DNA of 24,000 bases from Melioribacteraceae bacterium (GCA_027030245.1 JALVFE010000022.1:15148-39147), one strand, 5' to 3'; positions 9,083 to 19,450 are shown, numbered from the stretch's first letter. Translations and numbers: made by a program. Notes: a model not told the origin generated them from the letters alone.

Positions 9083-9280
9083 ATGGAATCGGTTTTCGGT
9101 GCCATATTAATCCTTGCTTTAAGAGTAATCGACGTAATACTCGGAACGTTCCGCACGATTTTATTGGTTCAAGGTAAAAAGTATCATGCCGGCGCTATCG
9201 GTTTTTTCGAAGTGATGATTTGGCTGTTTGCAATGCGTTTTGTTTTTCAACATCTTGATAATTATATCCATAATTTCTGA
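9083..9280 (+). pseudogene. 3'-truncated UPF0316 / DUF5698-DUF2179 family membrane protein (only about the first 60 of about 180 aa)
   Basis: MESVFGAILILALRVIDVILGTFRTILLVQGKKYHAGAIGFFEVMIWLFAMRFVFQHLDN resembles, from memory, the first two TM helices of B. subtilis YebE-type proteins (recalled features: the TIRTILLV block and IVFQDLSN). The family-typical third TM helix and the cytoplasmic DUF2179 domain are missing. The frame ends in NYIHNF-stop at the start of the AT-rich island flank. Confidence 0.5.
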
Positions 9281-9595
9281 GAAGAAATTATTCAAACACC
9301 AGCCAAGATTCGTCCTAAAATATAAAATAGAAAAAAATATATCCCAAAAACGAGATAAAAAGAATTAGTTTTTATATTTTAGCAAATATTTTTTGAACTT
9401 AATAAAGCACAATTAATAGCATAACGGAAACTCCTAAAAGAAAAAGGTAAAAAAATATTTGCCAAACAAAAGCATAAATGTTACAATTTTGTTAATGCTA
9501 ATTTTCAAAATATACAACAAGCCCGATTAGAATTCTTTATAAAATTGCATAGATTGTAAAGATATTCCTATAAAATTTATATAAAAATAAGTCGT

Positions 9596-12500
9596 ATGAT
9601 TAAAGAAAATACAATAGAAGAAAATCTGATAAAACAATTGACCGACTTAAAGTATATTTATCGCCCAGACATTGTCAATAGAAAAACTCTTGAACAAAAT
9701 TTCAGAGAAAAGTTTGAAAAATTGAACAAGGTAAGACTAACAGATAATGAATTTGCACGATTACGAGAACAAATTATTACGCCTGATGTATTTGCCGCTT
9801 CCAAGTTATTAAGAGAAAAACAATATTTTGAACGGGAAGATGGAACGCCATTACATTTTACATTGGTTAATATAAAAGACTGGTGCAAAAACGAATACGA
9901 AGTTATTAACCAACTGCGTATCAACACCGAAAATAGTTTTCAACGATACGATGTTATTTTGTTGATAAACGGATTGCCAATCGTTCAAATTGAACTGAAA
10001 AAAGTTAATGTTTCGCCAAGAAAAGCAATGCAACAAATCGTTGATTACAAAAACGATCCGGGTAATGGCTATACCAATACCTTATTGAGTTTTATGCAAC
10101 TGTTTATTGTGAGCAATCTAACTAACACATATTATTTTGCCAATAATATCAACCGGCATTTCGCTTTTAATGCAGATGAACAATTTTTACCTATTTACCA
10201 TTTAGCTGATGAAAAAAACAAGAAAATTACTCATCTGACTGAATTTACCGAAAGATTTCTCACAAAAAGTAACTTGGGAGAAATGATTAGCAAATACATG
10301 GTTTTGGTAGAGAGCGAACGGAAATTGTTAGTAATGCGCCCTTATCAGATTTATGCGGTGAAAGCTATTGTTGATTGTATTAATCAAAACAGAGGCAACG
10401 GTTATATTTGGCACACTACAGGCAGCGGAAAAACTCTTACTTCTTTCAAGGCGTCAACCTTGTTGAAGGATAATCCAGATATAGAAAAATGCTTGTTTGT
10501 AGTTGACAGAAAAGATCTTGACCGACAAACTCGAGAAGAATTTAATAAATTTCAGGAAGGCTGTGTTGAGGAAAACACTAATACCGAAACCCTCGTTAAA
10601 CGAATGCTTTCCACTGATTATTCCGATAAAGTAATTGTAACAACTATTCAAAAACTCGGTTTGGCTTTAGATCAAAATAGTAAGTTTAATAAGAGAAAAA
10701 CAAAAAAAGGACTTCCCACTTTTAAAGATAAATTGGCATCGCTAAGAGATAAACGAATGGTTTTTATTTTTGACGAATGCCATCGTTCGCAATTCGGAGA
10801 AAATCATAAGGCAATTAAAGATTTTTTCCCCCGCGCCCAACTTTTCGGATTTACCGGCACGCCTATTTTTGAAGAAAACGCAACTTATAAAATTAGAGAA
10901 GATCGTTTTGAAACTTACAAAACTACCGAAGCGGTTTTTGAAAAGCTCCTACATTCTTACACTATTACGCACGCCATAGAAGATAAAAATGTTTTGCGTT
11001 TTCATATTGATTATTACAAAGGCAAAGGCGAAAAAGAACCTAAGCCTGACGAGCAGGTTACGCAATTGGCAATTGTTGAAGCTATTTTGGAAAAACACAA
11101 TGCGGCAACTAATAATAGAAAATTTAACGCGCTATTAGCTACTTCATCGATCAATAATGCTATAAGTTATTACCGACTTTTTAAAGAAATTCAAAAAAAG
11201 AAATCGGAAGAAAATCCGGACTTTGTACCGTTAAATATCGCTTGCGTTTTTTCGCCTCCTGCGCAACTTATTGCTAAGGAAGGAGATAAACAAAGCCAAA
11301 AAACAGCCGAAGACATTAAGCAATTACAAGAAGATTTAATACAAGAAAAAGAAGATAACAAACAAAATCCAGAAGAAAAGAAAAAAGCTCTGGAAGAAAT
11401 TATTGCGGATTATAACAAACAATACGAAACAAATTATAGCATAAACGAATTTGATTTATATTATCAGGATGTACAAAGCCGCATCAAAAATCAAAAATAC
11501 AGTAATAAAGATGTTCCGCATAAAGATAAAATCGATTTGACAATCGTGGTGGATATGCTTTTGACTGGTTTTGATTCTAAATATCTCAACACCCTTTATG
11601 TAGATAAAAACTTAAAATATCACGGATTAATACAAGCATTTTCACGAACAAACCGCGTCTTGAACGACACAAAACCTTATGGCAATATTCTTGACTTTCG
11701 TATGCAAAAAGACGCTGTAAATCAGGCGGTGGCTTTATTCTCAGGCGAAGACAGTCACAAAGCCCAAGAAATTTGGTTGGTTGAACCCGCATCAGTAGTT
11801 ATCGAAAAATATGAAGAAGCCGTAGCGAAATTAGGTGAGTTTATGAAAAACCATAATTTGGTGCAAGAACCGCAAGAAGTCTATAATCTTAAAGGCGATA
11901 CGGCAAAAATCGAATTCATTAGAAATTTCAAAGAAATCCAACGACTCAGAACCCAACTTGACCAATATACCGATTTAAGCGATGAACAGAAAGAGTATAT
12001 TGAAAAGATTTTACCGACGGACACTTTACAGGAATTCAGAAGTTCTTATATCGAAACGGCTAAACAATTACGTGAAATACAGCAAAAAGAAGGAGACAAT
12101 GCGCCTGAGGAAATTCAGGAGTTGGATTTTGAATTTGTGCTGTTCGCTTCGGCAATTATCGATTATGATTACATAATGAATTTAATTGCGGAAAGCACGA
12201 AAAAGAAACCCTCTAAATATAAAATGACAAAGCAACAAATCATTAATTTGCTCAAATCCACTTCAAATTTAATGGATGAAGAAGAAGACCTCACCGACTA
12301 TATTAATAGTCTTGATTGGAGCAAAGGACAAAATGCCGATGATTTGCGAAAAGGCTATGATATTTTTAAAATAGAAAAATATAATAAGGAACTCGCACGA
12401 ATAGCCAACAAACACGGCTTACAAACGGTTAACTTAAAAGAATTTGTGGAGAACATTATAAACCGAATGATTTTTGACGGCGAAAAACTTACGGATTTGC

Positions 12501-12628
12501 TCGAGCCGCTGGATTTGGGTTGGAAAGCCCGCAGAGAAAAAGAATTGGCGTTAATGGAAGATTTGGTTCCACTATTAAAAAAATTAGCCCAAGGACGCGA
12601 GATATCCGGTCTGAAAGCTTATGAATAA
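9596..12628 (+). CDS. hsdR: Type I restriction enzyme R subunit (EcoR124/EcoprrI-like size class, 1010 aa)
   Basis: N-terminal PD-(D/E)xK nuclease block RYDVILLINGLPIVQIELKK. SF2 helicase motifs MRPYQIYAV, HTTGSGKTLTS (motif I), FIFDECHRSQ (DEAH-type motif II), FGFTGTP (motif III) and VVDMLLTGFDSKYLN...QAFSRTNR (motifs V/VI). The C-terminal domain is long and helical. Confidence 0.93.
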   Translation: MIKENTIEENLIKQLTDLKYIYRPDIVNRKTLEQNFREKFEKLNKVRLTDNEFARLREQIITPDVFAASKLLREKQYFEREDGTPLHFTLVNIKDWCKNEYEVINQLRINTENSFQRYDVILLINGLPIVQIELKKVNVSPRKAMQQIVDYKNDPGNGYTNTLLSFMQLFIVSNLTNTYYFANNINRHFAFNADEQFLPIYHLADEKNKKITHLTEFTERFLTKSNLGEMISKYMVLVESERKLLVMRPYQIYAVKAIVDCINQNRGNGYIWHTTGSGKTLTSFKASTLLKDNPDIEKCLFVVDRKDLDRQTREEFNKFQEGCVEENTNTETLVKRMLSTDYSDKVIVTTIQKLGLALDQNSKFNKRKTKKGLPTFKDKLASLRDKRMVFIFDECHRSQFGENHKAIKDFFPRAQLFGFTGTPIFEENATYKIREDRFETYKTTEAVFEKLLHSYTITHAIEDKNVLRFHIDYYKGKGEKEPKPDEQVTQLAIVEAILEKHNAATNNRKFNALLATSSINNAISYYRLFKEIQKKKSEENPDFVPLNIACVFSPPAQLIAKEGDKQSQKTAEDIKQLQEDLIQEKEDNKQNPEEKKKALEEIIADYNKQYETNYSINEFDLYYQDVQSRIKNQKYSNKDVPHKDKIDLTIVVDMLLTGFDSKYLNTLYVDKNLKYHGLIQAFSRTNRVLNDTKPYGNILDFRMQKDAVNQAVALFSGEDSHKAQEIWLVEPASVVIEKYEEAVAKLGEFMKNHNLVQEPQEVYNLKGDTAKIEFIRNFKEIQRLRTQLDQYTDLSDEQKEYIEKILPTDTLQEFRSSYIETAKQLREIQQKEGDNAPEEIQELDFEFVLFASAIIDYDYIMNLIAESTKKKPSKYKMTKQQIINLLKSTSNLMDEEEDLTDYINSLDWSKGQNADDLRKGYDIFKIEKYNKELARIANKHGLQTVNLKEFVENIINRMIFDGEKLTDLLEPLDLGWKARREKELALMEDLVPLLKKLAQGREISGLKAYE

Positions 12629-12874
12629 AAAGCAAAATATTGTTCACTATAAAAATTGCTAAATTGAATTAAATATTTATATCTACAGAGAAACCGCGGG
12701 GTTTATACAAAATGGAATTGGCGTTTTATTTTAGAAAGAGCGTCCATTTATCGCTCGGCGCATAAATAAGGTATTGAAAGACAAAGAGGTTAACGAAACA
12801 TGCATTTTGCAAAAAATACACATTACACTACACGGCAACCTCAAAAGAAGCGCATACGAATAAAGAGAAAAACT

Positions 12875-13717
12875 ATGAACGAGATTGTAATATATCATGC
12901 CGAACAACTTAATCAACAAATTGAAGTAAGAATTGAAGATGAGACTATATGGTTAACCCAAGCGCAAATAGTAACATTGTTTGATAGCAGTAAAGCTAAT
13001 ATTAGCGAACATATAAAACATATTTTTCAAACGGGAGAACTTACGCCTGAAGCAACTGTTCGGAAATTCCGAACAGTTCGAAAAGAAGGAAACCGAACCG
13101 TAACAAGAAATCTCGTTCATTATAATCTTGATATGATTATCTCAATTGGATACAGAGTCAATTCAATCCGCGGGACGCAATTCCGCATTTGGGCAAACAA
13201 GATACTAAAAGACTATTTGTTAAAAGGATACGCCCTTAATAACCGGATGAACCGAATAGAAGACAATTTACAAAAACTTACCGAAAAAGTGGAAGGCATC
13301 GATTTGCAAATAAAAGCTAATTTGCCGCCAAATCAAGGTATTTTCTACAACGGGCAGGTATTTGACGCTTACCTGCTTATTGCCGAAATTATTAAAAGCG
13401 CCAAAAGCTCCATTATTCTTATTGATAATTACGTTGATGAAACCGTATTGGCAATGTTAGACAAACGATGCAAAAACTGCGAGGCAACTGTTTTTACCAA
13501 AAACATCACAAAAAAACTGAAATTAGACGTTGAAAAACATAACCGACAATACCCTGAAATAGAACTAAAAAAATTAACCACCGCCCACGACCGTTTTTTA
13601 ATTATCGACCGGAAAACCGTTTACCACTTTGGCGCAAGCTTAAAAGACGCCGGCAAAAAATGGTTTGCTTTTTCAAAGTTGAATATGAATGCAAAAGATA
13701 TTATTGAGAAATTATGA
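12875..13717 (+). CDS. rhuM: RhuM-family N-terminal domain protein with a divergent C-terminal domain (HDRFLIID...GASLKD block)
   Basis: From the ATG at 12875, MNEIVIYHAEQLNQQIEVRIEDETIWLTQAQIVTLF...YNLDMIISIGYRVNSIRGTQFRIWANKILKDYLLKGY is the RhuM N-terminal signature. The C-terminal roughly 150 aa is not the canonical RhuM continuation. The stop overlaps the hsdS start (ATGA at 13714-13717). The tracked upstream ATG at 12800 adds a basic 25-aa extension that homologues lack, as far as I recall. Confidence 0.75.
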   Translation: MNEIVIYHAEQLNQQIEVRIEDETIWLTQAQIVTLFDSSKANISEHIKHIFQTGELTPEATVRKFRTVRKEGNRTVTRNLVHYNLDMIISIGYRVNSIRGTQFRIWANKILKDYLLKGYALNNRMNRIEDNLQKLTEKVEGIDLQIKANLPPNQGIFYNGQVFDAYLLIAEIIKSAKSSIILIDNYVDETVLAMLDKRCKNCEATVFTKNITKKLKLDVEKHNRQYPEIELKKLTTAHDRFLIIDRKTVYHFGASLKDAGKKWFAFSKLNMNAKDIIEKL

Positions 13718-14913
13718 GTGATAAGCAAAAAAACAAACTGATACCGAAATTGCGTTTTCCTGAGTTTAAGGATAACGGGGAGTGGAAAATTGATAAAGTT
13801 GTAAATTTAATTAATACAATTACGCCACCAAAGAAACTTAAAACAAAAGATTATCTGGAAGAAGGTAAGTTTCCCATTATAGATCAATCTCAAAGTTATT
13901 ATTGTGGTTGGACAAATGATATAGAAGCTATTATTTCTGACAATTTGCCTTTAATAATTTTTGGTGACCATACTTGCATTTTGAAAATAATTCAAGAACC
14001 TTTTGCACAAGGGGCAGATGGAATAAAGATATTGAAAACAAAAGAAAATGTTACTTCTGAATTTTTATTTCATTTTTTACAACATTATGGAGTTAAACAA
14101 GAAAATTACAAACGGCATTTTTCAAAATTAAAAGAAAAAATAGTATTTTTTCCTGATATTAAAACAGGTGAACAACAAAAAATTGCTTCCTTTCTTTCCA
14201 ATTTGGATAAATTGATTGAAGCTCACAATAAAAAACTTGATTTGCTCAAACGGCATAAAAAAGGATTAATGCAAAACCTTTTTCCGCAAGAAGGTGAAAA
14301 AGTCCCGAAATTGCGCTTTCCGGAGTTTAAGGATAGTGGGGAGTGGGAGGAAAAAATTCTTTCTAAAATAACTGATTACATATTTGATGGAACTCACCAA
14401 ACGCCGCGATATATTGAAAATGGTATTCCATTTTTTAGCGTAGAAAATATTATAAGTGGAAATAAGAATAAATTTATATCACACGAAGATTATGAAATAG
14501 CTACAAAAAAGAATAAACCTGAAAAAGGAGATATTTTAATAACAAGAATTGGCAAAATAGGATATTCTGCAATTGTGGATTGGGACTATGAATTTAGTAT
14601 ATATGTAACTCTCGCTTGTATTAAAAAATCAAAACATTTTGATTCGTATTATTTACATTCCTATTTTCAATCGGAAACTTATCAAAAAGAAATTATGAGC
14701 AAAGCATTGTTAAATGCGGTTCCCAGTAAAATAAATATGAATGAATTAAGAGAAACAAAAGTATTATTACCTTCAATTCCCGAACAAAAAAAAATCGCTT
14801 CTTTTCTTTCCAATTTGGATAAATTGATTGAAGCGGAAGAGAAAAAAATAGAACTATTGGAAAAACATAAAAAGGGATTAATGCAAGGATTGTTTCCTAA
14901 TATAGACGAGTAA
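13714..14913 (+). CDS. hsdS: Type I R-M specificity subunit, two target-recognition domains
   Basis: The architecture is duplicated. (I/V)PKLRFPEFKD(N/S)GEW occurs at aa 10 and aa 198. The conserved helical spacer QKIASFLSNLDKLIEA..KK..LL..HKKGLMQ.LFP also occurs twice. Two unrelated variable TRDs lie between these elements. Confidence 0.92.
   Translation: MSDKQKNKLIPKLRFPEFKDNGEWKIDKVVNLINTITPPKKLKTKDYLEEGKFPIIDQSQSYYCGWTNDIEAIISDNLPLIIFGDHTCILKIIQEPFAQGADGIKILKTKENVTSEFLFHFLQHYGVKQENYKRHFSKLKEKIVFFPDIKTGEQQKIASFLSNLDKLIEAHNKKLDLLKRHKKGLMQNLFPQEGEKVPKLRFPEFKDSGEWEEKILSKITDYIFDGTHQTPRYIENGIPFFSVENIISGNKNKFISHEDYEIATKKNKPEKGDILITRIGKIGYSAIVDWDYEFSIYVTLACIKKSKHFDSYYLHSYFQSETYQKEIMSKALLNAVPSKINMNELRETKVLLPSIPEQKKIASFLSNLDKLIEAEEKKIELLEKHKKGLMQGLFPNIDE
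14191..14222 (+). repeat. hsdS internal direct repeat, copy 1 (32-bp perfect core of a ~115-bp diverged conserved-region duplication)
   Basis: tttctttccaatttggataaattgattgaagc is found identically at 14803-14834. The flanks are similar but diverged (gaacaa[c/a]aaaaaat[t/c]gcttc upstream, ggattaatgcaa downstream). Confidence 0.9.
14803..14834 (+). repeat. hsdS internal direct repeat, copy 2
   Basis: Identical 32-mer to 14191-14222, 612 bp downstream. It encodes the second FLSNLDKLIEA helix. Confidence 0.9.
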
Positions 14914-14917
14914 AATT

Positions 14918-16036
14918 ATGAGTGTTGAAAGCTATTCTTTTTCAAACTTAGCAGATTTTGCCCGTTATTTGAGAGAACAGGACAAAAAAGTACACTTGTT
15001 GTTCGCTTACAATGGAACAGGGAAGACCCGTTTGTCAATGGATTTCAGGCAAGCTGGTAAAACATTTGACGAAGAGGGGAATGTAACAAATAGAGATACT
15101 TTATATTTTAATGCTTTTACTGAAGATTTATTTTATTGGGATAACGATTTGGAAAATGACACTGAAAGAGTGTTAAAAATTAATCAAAATTCAAGATTCT
15201 TTGAAGGTCTTCCTGATTTGGAAATGGAAAATAGAATTCGTCCTTTACTAAGACTATACACGGACTACGATTTTTACATTGATTATGACAAATGGCACGT
15301 AAGATTTACCAGAGAAGAACGGATTAAAGGTGAAACTATCACACATGACTTTATAAAAATATCGAGAGGCGAAGAGAGGCTTTTTATCTGGTGTTTCTTT
15401 TTGGCAATAATGCAATTGGCAATAGACAGACAAGAAGCATATAACTGGGTAAAATATATTTTTATTGATGATCCGGTTTCGTCATTAGACGACCATAATG
15501 CTGTTTCCGTGGCACATCATTTAGCACAAAAAATAAAGAAAATTGAAGGTAATAGCATTAAGGTGGTTATTTCAACTCATCATGCATTGTTTTTTAATGT
15601 TCTTTCAAATGAATTTAAAAGAGCCAAAAAGTTTTTTATTAAAAAAGCCGATATCGGTTATTTGTTAAGAGCAACTACAGATTCCCCTTTCATTTATCAT
15701 ATTGAATTGATTCAAAAAATAAAAAAAGCAATCGATGAAGATAAATTATTTACATACCATTTTAATATTTTGAGAACCATTCTTGAAAAAGCGGCAAACT
15801 TTCATGGTTATACAAATTTTTCGGATTGTTTGATTATTGACGACGACGATGAAGAAGGCACTTTACATTCTCGTTTGGTCAACATCATGAGCCATGGCGC
15901 ATACTCTTTATTTGAACCTGTTGAAATGGTAGAAGAAAATAAGAAGTATTTTATAAATATTTTTAATAATTATTTGCAAAACTATAAATTTAACGAACTA
16001 TTATTTACCGAAAAAAATCCTGAGCCATTAACATGA
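14918..16036 (+). CDS. prrC: PrrC-like AAA_13-type ABC ATPase, candidate anticodon nuclease embedded in the R-M operon
   Basis: 372 aa. Walker A AYNGTGKT (aa 30-37). YFNAFTEDLF resembles the FN-box that follows Walker A in this family. ABC-signature-like ISRGEERLF (aa 148-156). Walker B with D-loop YIFIDDPVSSLD (aa 180-191). H-motif VISTHH (aa 217-222). C-terminal N283-x2-R286-x3-E290 followed by S325-H326 matches the spacing of the PrrC Arg/Glu/His nuclease triad as I recall it. It starts 4 nt after the hsdS stop, and its stop overlaps the hsdM start (ATGA at 16033). Confidence 0.65.
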   Translation: MSVESYSFSNLADFARYLREQDKKVHLLFAYNGTGKTRLSMDFRQAGKTFDEEGNVTNRDTLYFNAFTEDLFYWDNDLENDTERVLKINQNSRFFEGLPDLEMENRIRPLLRLYTDYDFYIDYDKWHVRFTREERIKGETITHDFIKISRGEERLFIWCFFLAIMQLAIDRQEAYNWVKYIFIDDPVSSLDDHNAVSVAHHLAQKIKKIEGNSIKVVISTHHALFFNVLSNEFKRAKKFFIKKADIGYLLRATTDSPFIYHIELIQKIKKAIDEDKLFTYHFNILRTILEKAANFHGYTNFSDCLIIDDDDEEGTLHSRLVNIMSHGAYSLFEPVEMVEENKKYFINIFNNYLQNYKFNELLFTEKNPEPLT

Positions 16037-17646
16037 CACAAAAAGAACAACAAGAACTGGGTAAAACCCTTTGGAAGATAGCAGACGAACTTCGCGGGGC
16101 GATGAATGCGGATGATTTCCGCGATTATATGCTTTCGTTTTTATTTTTACGATATTTATCGGATAACTACGAAAAGTCCGCAAAAAAAGAATTGGGTAAA
16201 GATTACCCGAGATTGGACAAAGACGATAAGCGTACGCCTCTTGCCGTTTGGTATGAGCAAAACCCGAACGATGTAATTGAATTTGAAAAACAGATGCGCA
16301 GGAAGGTACACTATGTTATAAAACCGAAACACTTATGGACTAATATTGCCGAAATGGCTCGCACACAAAACGACGACCTGTTACAAACTTTGGAAGAAGG
16401 TTTTAAATACATAGAAAACGAATCTTTTGAAAGCACATTTCATGGTTTATTTTCGGAAATAAATTTGAATTCCGAAAAATTGGGCAAAACATACGAAGAA
16501 CGAAACAAAAAACTATGTAAAATCATCACTAAAATAGCCGAAGGCATTGCCGAATTTTCTACCGATTTAGATACTCTGGGCGACGCTTACGAATATTTAA
16601 TCGGTCAATTTGCCGCGGGTTCAGGCAAAAAAGCCGGAGAGTTTTATACTCCGCAACAAATATCCACAGTTCTTTCTGAAATTGTTACGCTAGACAGCCA
16701 TGACCCTGCCGCAGGCAAAAAAAATAAATTAAATAAGGTACTTGATTTTGCTTGCGGTTCAGGCTCATTGCTCTTAAATGTACGAAAACGAATGAAAGAA
16801 AGCGGTGGTACGGTAGGTAAAATTTACGGTCAGGAAAAAAACATCACCACATACAACCTTGCGCGAATGAATATGCTTTTGCATGGAATGAAAGACACGG
16901 AATTTGAAATATTTCACGGAGATACATTGCTTAATCAATGGCCGCTGCTCAACGAAATGAATCCAGCAAAAAAAATTGAATTCGACGCCGTAGTCGCTAA
17001 TCCTCCGTTTAGTTTACGGTGGGAACCTAACGAAACAATGGCGGAAGATTTCAGATTTAAAGGTTACGGTTTGGCACCAAAGTCGGCGGCGGATTTTGCT
17101 TTTTTACTTCACGGTTTTCATTATCTTGCCGGAAACGGCACAATGGCAATTATTTTGCCTCATGGGGTATTATTTCGAGGCGGAGAGGAAAAGAAAATCC
17201 GAACCAAGCTTTTAAAAGACAACAATATTGATGCAGTAATAGGGTTGCCTGCCAATCTTTTTTATTCGACCGGTATTCCGGTTTGTGTTATGGTGCTTAA
17301 AAAATGCAAAAAAGAAGACGATGTGTTGTTTATAAATGCCAGCGAACACTATGAAAAAGGAAAACGACAGAACTTTTTGAGAGATGAAGACATTGAAAGA
17401 ATTGTCGAGACGTACAAAAATCGACCCAAGAAAATAGAACGTTATGCGAGAAGAGTTTCGATGGATGAAATTGATAAGAACGACTACAACTTAAATATTT
17501 CGAGATATGTAAGCACGGCAATACCTGAAGAAAAAATTGATTTGAAAAAGGTAAACAAAGACTTGATTGAAATCGAGAAAAAAATAAAAAAATTCACGGA
17601 AAAACATAACGAATATCTAAAAGAATTAGGATTAAAAACAATTTAA
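16033..17646 (+). CDS. hsdM: Type I R-M N6-adenine DNA methyltransferase subunit
   Basis: HsdM_N-type N-terminus LWKIADELRGAMNADDFRDYMLSFLFLRYLSDNYE. Also GEFYTPQQIS, motif I VLDFACGSGSLLL and motif IV VVANPPFS. Confidence 0.95.
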   Translation: MTQKEQQELGKTLWKIADELRGAMNADDFRDYMLSFLFLRYLSDNYEKSAKKELGKDYPRLDKDDKRTPLAVWYEQNPNDVIEFEKQMRRKVHYVIKPKHLWTNIAEMARTQNDDLLQTLEEGFKYIENESFESTFHGLFSEINLNSEKLGKTYEERNKKLCKIITKIAEGIAEFSTDLDTLGDAYEYLIGQFAAGSGKKAGEFYTPQQISTVLSEIVTLDSHDPAAGKKNKLNKVLDFACGSGSLLLNVRKRMKESGGTVGKIYGQEKNITTYNLARMNMLLHGMKDTEFEIFHGDTLLNQWPLLNEMNPAKKIEFDAVVANPPFSLRWEPNETMAEDFRFKGYGLAPKSAADFAFLLHGFHYLAGNGTMAIILPHGVLFRGGEEKKIRTKLLKDNNIDAVIGLPANLFYSTGIPVCVMVLKKCKKEDDVLFINASEHYEKGKRQNFLRDEDIERIVETYKNRPKKIERYARRVSMDEIDKNDYNLNISRYVSTAIPEEKIDLKKVNKDLIEIEKKIKKFTEKHNEYLKELGLKTI

Positions 17647-18022
17647 CAATGAAATGACTACCAACAGATGTAAAGATTTACAATCATTAAACGCATTTTA
17701 ATTTTTTAATATGTTAACCAAAATTATACTGAGCATGAACCACTAAATAAAATATATTGCAGAAGAATACGCTTAGTCAATGAAATAAGAAAGTGCCAAT
17801 AATTTCCGACTTGTAAAGGAAAGCTACAATAAATCACCAAATAACAATATAGAATGCGCATAACACAAAATTAAGTTAAACAGAAAAAGATGCGTTTATA
17901 ACCGTACAGCATTCCCGACCGTATCGCGGATTTATTCACGGAGCGAGAAAATAAGTTTGAAAAAAAGAACAAACAATATTATATTACGTGTTCAAAATTT
18001 TGTTCTTTATCTGAAAAAATAT

Positions 18023-18095
18023 GCGGGAGTAGCTCAGTTGGTAGAGCATCACGTTGCCAACGTGATTGTCGCGGGTTCGAGTCCCGTCTCCCGCT
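18023..18095 (+). tRNA. tRNA-Gly (anticodon GCC)
   Basis: Hand-folded cloverleaf. Acceptor GCGGGAG/CTCCCGC. D arm GCTC-AGTTGGTA-GAGC. Anticodon stem TCACG/CGTGA with loop TTGCCAA. T arm GCGGG-TTCGAGT-CCCGT. Discriminator T. CCA is not encoded. Confidence 0.9.
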
Positions 18096-18101
18096 CTACT
18101 C

Positions 18102-18131
18102 AAATCCACTGAACGGTGGATTTTATTTTTT
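18102..18131 (+). terminator. Rho-independent terminator between the two tRNA genes
   Basis: An 8-bp stem AAATCCAC (18102-18109) / GTGGATTT (18116-18123) with a short loop, running into TTTTATTTTTT. Confidence 0.6.
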
Positions 18132-18147
18132 GAAGAGTTCTTTTAAC

Positions 18148-18221
18148 GGCGGCGTAGCCAAGTGGTCTAAGGCGAAGGTCTGCAAAACCTTTATTCGTCG
18201 GTTCGAATCCGACCGCCGCCT
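18148..18221 (+). tRNA. tRNA-Cys (anticodon GCA)
   Basis: Acceptor GGCGGCG/CGCCGCC. Anticodon stem AAGGT/ACCTT with loop CTGCAAA. T arm GTCGG-TTCGAAT-CCGAC. Variable loop of 5 nt. Discriminator T. CCA is not encoded. Confidence 0.88.
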
Positions 18222-19450
18222 CAACCTTTTCCTCTCATTAAATTTTCTATAACCTCAACCGCTTTTTCGACTCCGTTTTCGTTCCGGATTTTTTCTCCCA
18301 ATTTTTCGGCATTTTCCCTTAGCGTGTTGTTTGTCATCAGCTCGTTTACCCTTTTTAAGATTTGCTCATCCGTTAAATTAGCGGTGAATAACGGTAGGGT
18401 ACCCGCCCCTATTGCGTGAACACGGTTGCCCCAAAATTTATGGTCGCCGTAAGTGGGAACAACGGTCAACGGTTTTCCAGCCCGCAAAACCGCCGCAACC
18501 GTACCGGGTCCGCCGTGCGAAATAACCGCTCTAACTTTTGGCAAAATATATGCATGCGGAACGGAGCCGTCGACGAAAAATATTTTACCCGGTTTATTTA
18601 GTTTTGAGATGTCCGCTCCTCCGGGATTTGCGACAATTCTGTATTCGGTTTTAAGTAAAACCGAGAGAATCTTCGATATTATTTGTTCGGAATATTGCCC
18701 CAAACTTCCGATATCAAAAAAGAGCGGTTGGGAACCATTGTTGATAAAATCTTCGAGTTCTTTTGCGGGTGAGTAACTTTCCAAATCTTTCAGAAACCAA
18801 TAACCGGTTACGTAAATCCATCCGGGCCAATCTTTGGGTCGCGGAATAACACTTTCACTATAACCGTAAATTACCGGCATCTTTTCTTTATGTTGCTTGT
18901 GCAACAATCCGTAAAAAGGAATCGGCTTTAAATCAAGCAACTCCTTTCGCAATTTGTTTATGTTCTTTTTAATAATCTGCCACTCGAAAAATTGGGAAAC
19001 CAAATAACTCGTTTTATTTAAAAATGCCGGCACCGATTTTAAAAACGGATTGGGAAACTCTTTCGTGGGCGTGTACGGAACATAACTGCATTTAACTACC
19101 GGTATTTCCAATTTTTGCGCAACGTGGTAACCAACGTGATAGACCGGAGTAAAAATTATCAAATCCGAATTTTTTGCGGCTTCAATTCCATCGTTAATCC
19201 AGTTCGTCATAAAATGATAATAAATTTTTCTTCTTTCTTTATACGGAGTGTCTTTATATTCGTCTTTCAGAATATCCATCGGATTATTTCTTATTAAATC
19301 GAATTTGATTCCGCGGCTTTCGATAAAATCTTTAAATTCCGGATTTGCCGCAAAGTTAACCGAATGCCCGGCATCTTTTAAACCGACCGCCAAAGCTAAA
19401 AACGGCTGCACATCACCGCGGCTTCCGACCGTTAATATTGAAATATTCAT
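18221..19450 (-). CDS. GT1-family glycosyltransferase (MGT / sterol-glucosyltransferase-like, GT28 N-terminal-type domain)
   Basis: N-terminus MNISILTVGSRGDVQPFLALAVGLKDAGHSV. C-terminal nucleotide-sugar motif ISHGGPGTVAAVLRAGKPLTVVPTYGDHKFWGNRV...GAG. Confidence 0.85.
   Translation of the reverse strand: MNISILTVGSRGDVQPFLALAVGLKDAGHSVNFAANPEFKDFIESRGIKFDLIRNNPMDILKDEYKDTPYKERRKIYYHFMTNWINDGIEAAKNSDLIIFTPVYHVGYHVAQKLEIPVVKCSYVPYTPTKEFPNPFLKSVPAFLNKTSYLVSQFFEWQIIKKNINKLRKELLDLKPIPFYGLLHKQHKEKMPVIYGYSESVIPRPKDWPGWIYVTGYWFLKDLESYSPAKELEDFINNGSQPLFFDIGSLGQYSEQIISKILSVLLKTEYRIVANPGGADISKLNKPGKIFFVDGSVPHAYILPKVRAVISHGGPGTVAAVLRAGKPLTVVPTYGDHKFWGNRVHAIGAGTLPLFTANLTDEQILKRVNELMTNNTLRENAEKLGEKIRNENGVEKAVEVIENLMRGKG

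Follow-up and report, generated by a model that had tools for sequence, protein, structure and literature searches.

Does a type I restriction-modification (R-M) operon that carries two unrelated genes among its subunit genes form a layered defence against phages, and how did such a module come to stand where it does? The question is raised by a locus in a Melioribacteraceae bacterium, contained in a window of 24,000 nt (GCA_027030245.1 JALVFE010000022.1:15148-39147), which is the whole stretch of DNA analysed and from whose first nucleotide all coordinates below are counted. The two embedded genes, or passengers, encode a member of the PrrC anticodon-nuclease family and a RhuM-family protein. 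The best explanation of the whole, which is probably correct, is that the locus is an acquired EcoprrI/EcoR124-like operon with an hsdR-hsdS-prrC-hsdM backbone and an additional embedded gene for a protein with a RhuM N-domain and a phospholipase D (PLD) fold, together serving as a layered defence. This explanation is built on observed gene identities, motifs, junctions, island status and comparative layout.

Organization of the operon

Five intact open reading frames (ORFs) on the + strand occupy 9596-17646. Matches to Pfam, NCBIfam and PADLOC models identify them as hsdR, a RhuM-family gene, hsdS, prrC and hsdM, and the PADLOC run on the island returned REase_I, PDC-S05, Specificity_I and PrrC.

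9596-12628, + strand: hsdR, type I restriction subunit, EcoR124/EcoprrI-like, 1010 aa, intact
12629-12874, + strand: non-coding spacer of 246 nt between hsdR and the RhuM-like gene
12875-13717, + strand: RhuM-family passenger (PADLOC PDC-S05), 280 aa
13714-14913, + strand: hsdS, specificity subunit with two target-recognition domains, 399 aa
14918-16036, + strand: prrC, anticodon-nuclease family passenger, 372 aa
16033-17646, + strand: hsdM, methyltransferase subunit, 537 aa

The last four genes are closely joined. An ATGA at 13714 overlaps the stop codon of the RhuM-like gene with the start of hsdS, another at 16033 does the same for prrC and hsdM, and the hsdS/prrC junction (TAA-AATT-ATG) leaves a gap of 4 nt at 14914-14917. 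The first ATG of the RhuM-like ORF lies at 12800; because the PADLOC profile and hundreds of homologues of 281-288 aa begin at residue 26 of that frame, the gene most likely starts at 12875 rather than 12800, hence the 246-nt gap. A preliminary description of this DNA had given the same gene order, the two ATGA overlaps and the 4-nt gap, all of which are borne out; the 246-nt gap after hsdR that it also reported holds if translation begins at 12875. We infer that the passengers are co-transcribed with hsdS and hsdM.

The type I restriction-modification subunits

HsdR, HsdM and HsdS each match their family models over the full length. HsdR (TIGR00348, 3e-118; PADLOC REase_I model PDLC03048, 1068 bits) comprises the Pfam domains HSDR_N, SWI2_SNF2, T1R_D3-like and EcoR124_C (PF12008, 8.5e-64), and it retains the GSGKT and DECH motifs and a D..ELK nuclease motif. 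HsdM (TIGR00497, 5.9e-123) contains N6_Mtase and HsdM_N domains together with NPPF and DFACGSG motifs, and HsdS carries two Methylase_S domains (PADLOC Specificity_I, 3e-85). The R-M proteins of the window and those of an E. coli prr-type locus have the same best models, PDLC03048 and PDLC03022; the window HsdR is only about 33% identical to the E. coli-type HsdR. By these sequence matches, the system classes as type I, EcoprrI/EcoR124-like (type IC).

Internal direct repeats occur in hsdS, of 116 nt at 14170 and 14782 and of 42 nt at 13744 and 14305; they are the usual conserved regions flanking the two target-recognition domains. The same genome contains a second type I R-M locus (contig C16, about 278,000-288,300), whose HsdM and HsdR are 35% and about 25% identical, respectively, to those of the window. 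About 6.6 kb separate the end of the hsdM match from the start of the hsdR match in that locus, which may carry embedded genes too.

The PrrC passenger

The PrrC family is characterized by ABC-type motifs, a family-unique PrrC box (residues 68-94 of the E. coli protein) and constant linkage to EcoprrI homologues (PMC1484252). Mutagenesis has implicated Arg320, Glu324 and His356 of E. coli PrrC in catalysis, and the prototype works in phage exclusion (PMC1484252). For comparison, an E. coli prr-type locus was taken from a RefSeq E. coli chromosome, not from the original strain; it has the order hsdM-hsdS-'anticodon nuclease' (396 aa)-hsdR. A scan of one genome per species yielded 476 PrrC relatives, of which the best 80 were kept with their flanks, and an alignment of 81 sequences was assembled from the window PrrC, the E. 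coli PrrC and the PrrC of 79 of these 80 species-representative loci.

The window protein matches the PADLOC PrrC model at 8.5e-134 and is 36% identical to E. coli PrrC in pairwise alignment. It carries the ABC-type motifs NGTGKT (Walker A), SRGEE (signature), DDPVSSLD (Walker B) and STHH (linchpin His), whose catalytic and phosphate-binding residues are kept in 72-81 of the 81 sequences. The core of the PrrC box (window residues 66-77) is invariant in all 81 sequences at 11 of its 12 positions, the exception being F67 (70/81); residue 78 is invariant as well, and pairwise alignment gives the same sequence as in E. coli over residues 66-78. R286, E290 and H326 align with the E. coli residues R320, E324 and H356 and are kept in 80, 79 and 81 of the 81 sequences. 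The gene itself is placed between hsdS and hsdM of an EcoprrI-like type I R-M system. The PrrC-like call of the preliminary description thus agrees with the sequence features of the family (ABC motifs, PrrC box, catalytic triad and R-M linkage), and its likening of the locus to the logic of E. coli prr is apt in that this protein fits the sequence definition of a family whose prototype is silenced by EcoprrI. A sequence search of the PDB with PrrC gave no meaningful match.

The stretch that recognizes tRNA-Lys in E. coli PrrC (residues 284-294) is altered in the window protein by a 4-residue deletion, with T-T aligned to D287/S288; a D-S pair stands two residues further on, and Tyr294 is kept. 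This stretch varies among PrrC homologues (PMC1484252).

The RhuM-type passenger

The second passenger is a variant member of its family. Its match to PF13310 (1e-25) covers only profile positions 1-82 of 252, whereas the canonical RhuM proteins of other PrrC loci match positions 1-251; judged by these profile matches, it is a RhuM N-domain that lacks the canonical C-terminal part. PADLOC model PDLC04879 (PDC-S05) is matched nearly end to end (positions 4-283 of 285; 408 bits; 4.5e-123). The variant family has at least 8000 matches, hundreds of them 65-89% identical over the full length, and database entries name these homologues 'RhuM family protein' or 'DNA-binding protein'.

The structure modelled by AlphaFold2 from 44 homologues consists of an N-domain (predicted local distance difference test score, pLDDT, 70-92) and a C-domain (about 90) joined by a long helix (residues 98-141); the second half of the helix and the linker (118-162) fall below 50. 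Foldseek searches with the whole chain give TrmBL2 and TrmB as best matches (E 5e-7 to 3e-4 over about 270 aligned columns), and those with the C-domain return NucT, Zucchini, FAM83, MITD1, F13, PLD3/4 and Tdp1 at a probability of 1.0. PLDc_2 is weakly matched by 11 of the 44 homologues. The C-domain is accordingly predicted, from the model, to adopt a PLD fold. With TrmB/TrmBL2, NucT and Zucchini the variant appears to share a three-part build, in which a long helix connects an N-domain of winged-helix type to a C-domain with the PLD fold, and, as in single-domain PLD nucleases, its conserved motif sits at the HKD position. The columns of this motif are invariant or nearly so (H238-x-R240-x4-D245 ... 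G253-x-S255-x-K257-D258). It departs from the H-x-K-x4-D pattern in that the HKD lysine is replaced by arginine, which is invariant in the 44 sequences. Sequence similarity to any solved structure is not detectable: PDB searches with the protein and with its profile gave no meaningful match. The C-domains of KilA-N and Bro-N passengers found in other loci are unrelated to that of the RhuM variant.

Of eight homologues sampled, half are embedded in type I operons, which belong to two different families. The other four have no R-M operon around them: two stand alone, one neighbours a YgjP-like gene and one has Fic/ORF6N surroundings. Because half of this sample lies outside R-M operons, embedding of the variant is frequent but not obligatory. 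A heavily loaded type I operon (L112:4428-12894) holds the RhuM variant, DUF1016/YhcG, SIR2_2 and a 919-aa protein between hsdM and hsdR. In E. coli B, one PDC-S05 gene, whose subfamily may differ from that of the window protein, lowered phage plating about 1000-fold for both T7 and T5 (bioRxiv 10.1101/2024.09.26.614923).

Gene order and cargo across PrrC loci

Layouts of the best 80 of the 476 loci were found by mapping the window proteins onto them, and the PrrC tree was midpoint-rooted. The group that includes the window PrrC comprises 59 loci, of which 55 (55/80 overall) have the order hsdR-hsdS-prrC-hsdM; in the remaining four hsdR was not found upstream, mostly because the contig ends. 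The E. coli-type group contains 21 loci and the E. coli prototype, with the order hsdM..prrC..hsdR in 22/22. In the tree, the E. coli-type clade has a support of 1.0 and the window's side one of only 0.19; the division into two groups rests mainly on gene order and that one well-supported clade. Judged by record titles, the hsdR-first group extends over Bacteroidota, Ignavibacteria, Balneolia, Bacillota, Pseudomonadota, Acidobacteriota, Spirochaetota, Planctomycetota, Elusimicrobiota, Cyanobacteriota and Campylobacterota. The best PADLOC models for HsdR, HsdM and PrrC are the same in the window and in the E. coli prr-type locus, and both groups therefore fall in one broad R-M subfamily.

Like the E. 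coli prr locus (EcoprrI, hsdM-hsdS-prrC-hsdR), the window has prrC as the gene that immediately follows hsdS within a type I R-M operon, with the same ABC motifs, PrrC box, Arg/Glu/His triad and PADLOC models. It differs in having hsdR first and hsdM last, in a PrrC of 36% identity that belongs to the other tree group and appears not to conserve the tRNA-Lys recognition stretch, and in the embedded RhuM-type gene. The gene order and the second passenger had been put forward in the preliminary description as departures from prr; both are present, but an hsdR-first order is the rule in the larger PrrC group and a second passenger recurs among PrrC loci.

Further genes stand at some junction in about one quarter of hsdR-first operons. 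Canonical RhuM genes occur in six hsdR-first loci, after hsdS or after prrC, and a RhuM gene is present in three E. coli-type operons. PrrC and a RhuM-type gene are thus combined in one operon in 9 of the 80 loci. Because the position of the RhuM gene varies among these loci (after hsdS, prrC or hsdM), the layouts point to repeated and independent assembly of such operons. KilA-N passengers (PADLOC PDC-S22) occupy the hsdR/hsdS slot of hsdR-first operons twice, and other cargo of this group includes Bro-N, DUF1016/YhcG nuclease, HEPN_LA2681, DUF488, Fic-like, helicase with DprA/SLOG, a second PrrC-like gene and IS200. A Halomonas metagenome-assembled genome (L044:2888-13703) has a type I operon with two PrrC-like genes, a HEPN_LA2681 protein and a RhuM gene.

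The closest operons, L098 (GCA_015493525.1) and L110 (GCA_027008645.1), have the order HTH_3-hsdR-RhuM variant-hsdS-X-hsdM, with a helix-turn-helix (HTH) gene at the head. They share with the window the backbone, the RhuM variant in the same slot and its ATGA junction to hsdS. DNA homology spans window positions 9346-17654, and the HsdR, RhuM variant and HsdM proteins of L098 are 88-90% identical to those of the window. In slot X, however, they have a RAYT/IS200-like HUH protein (Pfam match sub-threshold) where the window has PrrC; their HTH gene is intact, and they have no 246-nt spacer. The slot X genes (L098:7657-8301 and L110:7520-8044) represent cargo that is mobile-element-like, not defence-like.

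An acquired island in a disrupted gene

The surroundings of the operon indicate how it came to its present site.

9083-9280, + strand: 5' stub of a UPF0316 (DUF5698/DUF2179) membrane-protein gene (Pfam DUF5698, 4.9e-13)
9264-17882, + strand: acquired island of about 8.6 kb (site empty in G003 and G005)
9410-9595, + strand: pseudogene of a 62-aa HTH_3 protein (XRE-type, controller-like), matched by tblastn at 46% over 46 residues (E 2.8e-8)
17880-17954, + strand: 3' stub of the UPF0316 gene, last 24 codons and stop (tblastn 87.5% to G003 residues 148-171)
18023-18222, + strand: tRNA-Gly(GCC) and tRNA-Cys(GCA), intact and native (ARAGORN, Rfam)

The locus is a horizontally acquired island inside a disrupted UPF0316 gene, and the tRNA genes are mere neighbours. 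In two genomes of the same genus (G003 and G005) the site has the order pcm, intact 171-aa UPF0316 gene, tRNA-Gly, tRNA-Cys and GT1, and three other genera keep an intact UPF0316 gene and at least tRNA-Gly, one contig ending before tRNA-Cys. The 5' stub is 84% identical to residues 1-63 of the G003 gene; homology ends at codon 63 (about 9263-9271), and the last codons and stop of the stub are supplied by island DNA. DNA homology to relatives ends at 9263 and resumes at 17867-17883, which places the left junction at about 9264-9271 and the right one at about 17866-17882, and 17952-18022 is native intergenic DNA. Since residues 1-63 and 148-171 survive on either side, the island has replaced the middle of the gene, that is, 84 codons (about 252 bp) that are found nowhere else in the genome.

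The preliminary description had placed the island between a truncated gene and a tRNA pair. The stub and the tRNA genes are real, but the island ends at about 17866-17882, not at 18022. It had also reported no integrase or transposase, and no such ORF is present in 9264-17882. The synteny with relatives that it called for shows the intact UPF0316 site in G003 and G005; this empty site, together with the rarity of PrrC (3 of 166 genomes in the family, 0 of 5 congeners), speaks against the possibility, raised there, that the locus is core genome in all relatives. A comparison of composition, which it had suggested, was made against the genome: the guanine-plus-cytosine (GC) content of the island is lower (33.3% vs 36.7%; 7.5th percentile), and its tetranucleotide distance, at the 89.5th percentile, is only mildly atypical.

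Integration targeted to a tRNA gene was considered as a route of entry and is rejected: neither tRNA gene is damaged, and the island ends within the disrupted gene, about 140 nt before tRNA-Gly. The island ends show no direct or inverted terminal repeats and junction microhomology of at most a few bases. A search for cassette scars at the ends of hsdR and the RhuM-like gene and of hsdS and prrC gave no match longer than 11 nt.

In a second, conspecific assembly (L115) the island again stands beside pcm; the two copies align gap-free over 5.6 kb at 98.9% identity, with the open frames kept. The alignment breaks off roughly 70 nt inside hsdS, near the contig end of L115, and L115:5636-5899 differs from the window sequence that starts at 13786. 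This break suggests that L115 carries a different HsdS target-recognition domain, i.e. another specificity allele.

The upstream region and the spacer

The HTH_3 gene that abuts hsdR upstream is intact in L098 and L110. In the window it has lost its start codon and acquired in-frame stops and a 5-nt deletion. Upstream of the remnant, the block 9346-9400 is conserved with both relatives. An inverted repeat at 9378-9400 / 9444-9466 could be a promoter or operator.

The 246-nt spacer is a single-copy sequence in its own genome and is present in L115. It has no counterpart in L098, L110 or any other locus compared and no Rfam match; in L098 and L110, hsdR and the RhuM variant overlap or lie 4 nt apart. 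The spacer may contain an internal promoter. A scan for sigma-70 promoters and terminators gave counts equal to those of shuffled sequence; the host, however, is probably a member of Bacteroidota, since its genome encodes about 100 Por_Secre_tail proteins of the type IX secretion system (T9SS), and that consensus does not apply there. Neither the spacer nor the region upstream of hsdR contains the Bacteroidota-type motif TAnnTTTG, and an Rfam search of the island region found two tRNAs only.

Proposed mode of action and competing explanations

In the proposed scheme, HsdMSR would methylate host DNA and cut unmodified incoming DNA as the first line of defence. PrrC would be co-produced with HsdS and HsdM through coupled translation and, by analogy with E. 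coli, held latent on the R-M complex. If a phage were to disable restriction, PrrC would cut the anticodon loop of a tRNA and translation would stop; both the silencing and the cleavage are proposed here on the E. coli model. The RhuM-type protein would be a third, probably autonomous effector, its N-domain binding nucleic acid, its long helix dimerizing and its PLD-type site acting, which is the least certain step of the scheme.

Several features weigh against this scheme. The tRNA-Lys anticodon-reading stretch of E. coli PrrC appears, by alignment, not to be conserved in the window PrrC, so that tRNA-Lys need not be the substrate of the latter. Arginine in place of the catalytic HKD lysine makes catalytic activity of the RhuM variant uncertain, and its best whole-chain structural matches in the modelled fold, TrmBL2 and TrmB, are non-catalytic DNA-binding proteins. 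The variant also occurs alone or with other partners and need not depend on an R-M complex. Regulation at this locus would differ from that of the relatives because the small HTH gene ahead of hsdR is a pseudogene here, and, because the spacer before the RhuM-like gene is missing from relatives, the operon may be two transcription units.

The strongest competing explanation concerns the role of the RhuM-type protein. This protein could be a TrmB/TrmBL2-like DNA-binding regulator or sensor, composed of a winged-helix domain, a helix for dimerization and a non-catalytic PLD-like ligand domain, that tunes the R-M operon or reports a signal. The fold matches just named would fit such a role, as would the invariant arginine, since K-to-R changes inactivate classical PLDs, and the dead upstream HTH controller gene of this locus. 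Nevertheless, L098 and L110 keep an intact HTH gene and the RhuM variant together, so the variant is not the controller's replacement, and it occurs in unrelated type I families as well as far from R-M genes. H238, R240, D245, G253, S255, K257 and D258 are near-invariant, as expected of an active or binding site, and the PDC-S05 gene mentioned above, perhaps of another subfamily, protected alone against phages (bioRxiv 10.1101/2024.09.26.614923). A regulatory role is therefore a lesser, still appreciable possibility. A further idea, that the type I complex keeps this RhuM-N/PLD-fold protein under guard as a second effector beside PrrC, appears unlikely. If it were true, one HsdMSR would hold two latent toxins, each responding to a different means of blocking restriction: the first would cut tRNA, and the second would be a PLD-type enzyme directed at DNA, whose H-x-R site is unusual.

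The passengers might instead be selfish hitch-hikers or addiction modules that kill cells losing the R-M genes and so spread with the cassette. Linked transfer has been raised as a selfish benefit (bioRxiv 10.1101/2024.01.29.577857), and the slots hold very varied cargo, including IS200/RAYT-like genes without obvious defence (L019; sub-threshold in L098 and L110). Set against this are the phage exclusion by the E. coli prototype (PMC1484252) and the make-up of the cargo, most of which falls into established or candidate families of defence genes (PDC-S05, PDC-S22, HEPN, DUF1016/YhcG nuclease and Fic-like). As the account of this locus, selfish spread seems rather improbable, and the selfish and layered-defence readings do not exclude each other. 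A locus in decay, no longer working as a unit, might be suspected from the HTH pseudogene and from the extra 246-nt spacer that parts hsdR from the rest; yet the five genes are full length with all catalytic and nucleotide-binding motifs intact, and the conspecific copy in L115 keeps the same open frames over its gapless 5.6 kb at 98.9% identity, which leaves decay a very slim chance. The layered-defence reading of the acquired operon therefore stays the preferred one.

Relation to known systems and significance

Each element of the locus has been documented before: its overall layout, hsdR in first place, a second passenger, and layered defence as an idea. Neighbourhoods combining PrrC, RhuM and R-M genes, the same combination as in the window, have been read as multilevel defence with RhuM as a proposed toxin (Anantharaman et al. 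2013, PMC3710099). The layered defence proposed in the preliminary description is supported by the gene identities, junctions and island status described above, and as an idea it was published in 2013 (PMC3710099). The RhuM proteins found among the 80 PrrC loci are canonical and full length, whereas that of the window is the variant with a predicted PLD-fold C-domain, located between hsdR and hsdS. It has also been reported that PrrC occurs almost exclusively inside type I R-M systems, that embedded genes are enriched for defence and that the PDC families were derived from embedded genes (Payne et al. 2024, bioRxiv 10.1101/2024.01.29.577857). The RhuM-like protein matches PDLC04879 end to end, and the locus is a textbook example of such 'guilt by embedding' in a type I system and shows no difference in kind. 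PDC-S05 groups many C-terminal variants.

The value of the locus, which opens no new question of its own, is modest and lies in its compactness: neither prrC nor the RhuM-type gene is damaged, and a single operon links both closely to hsdS and hsdM. Close relatives with the same backbone and other cargo in the same slots make it part of a convenient set for two questions, namely whether RhuM-type proteins, like PrrC, rely on the R-M complex, and which tRNA the large hsdR-first PrrC clade cuts.

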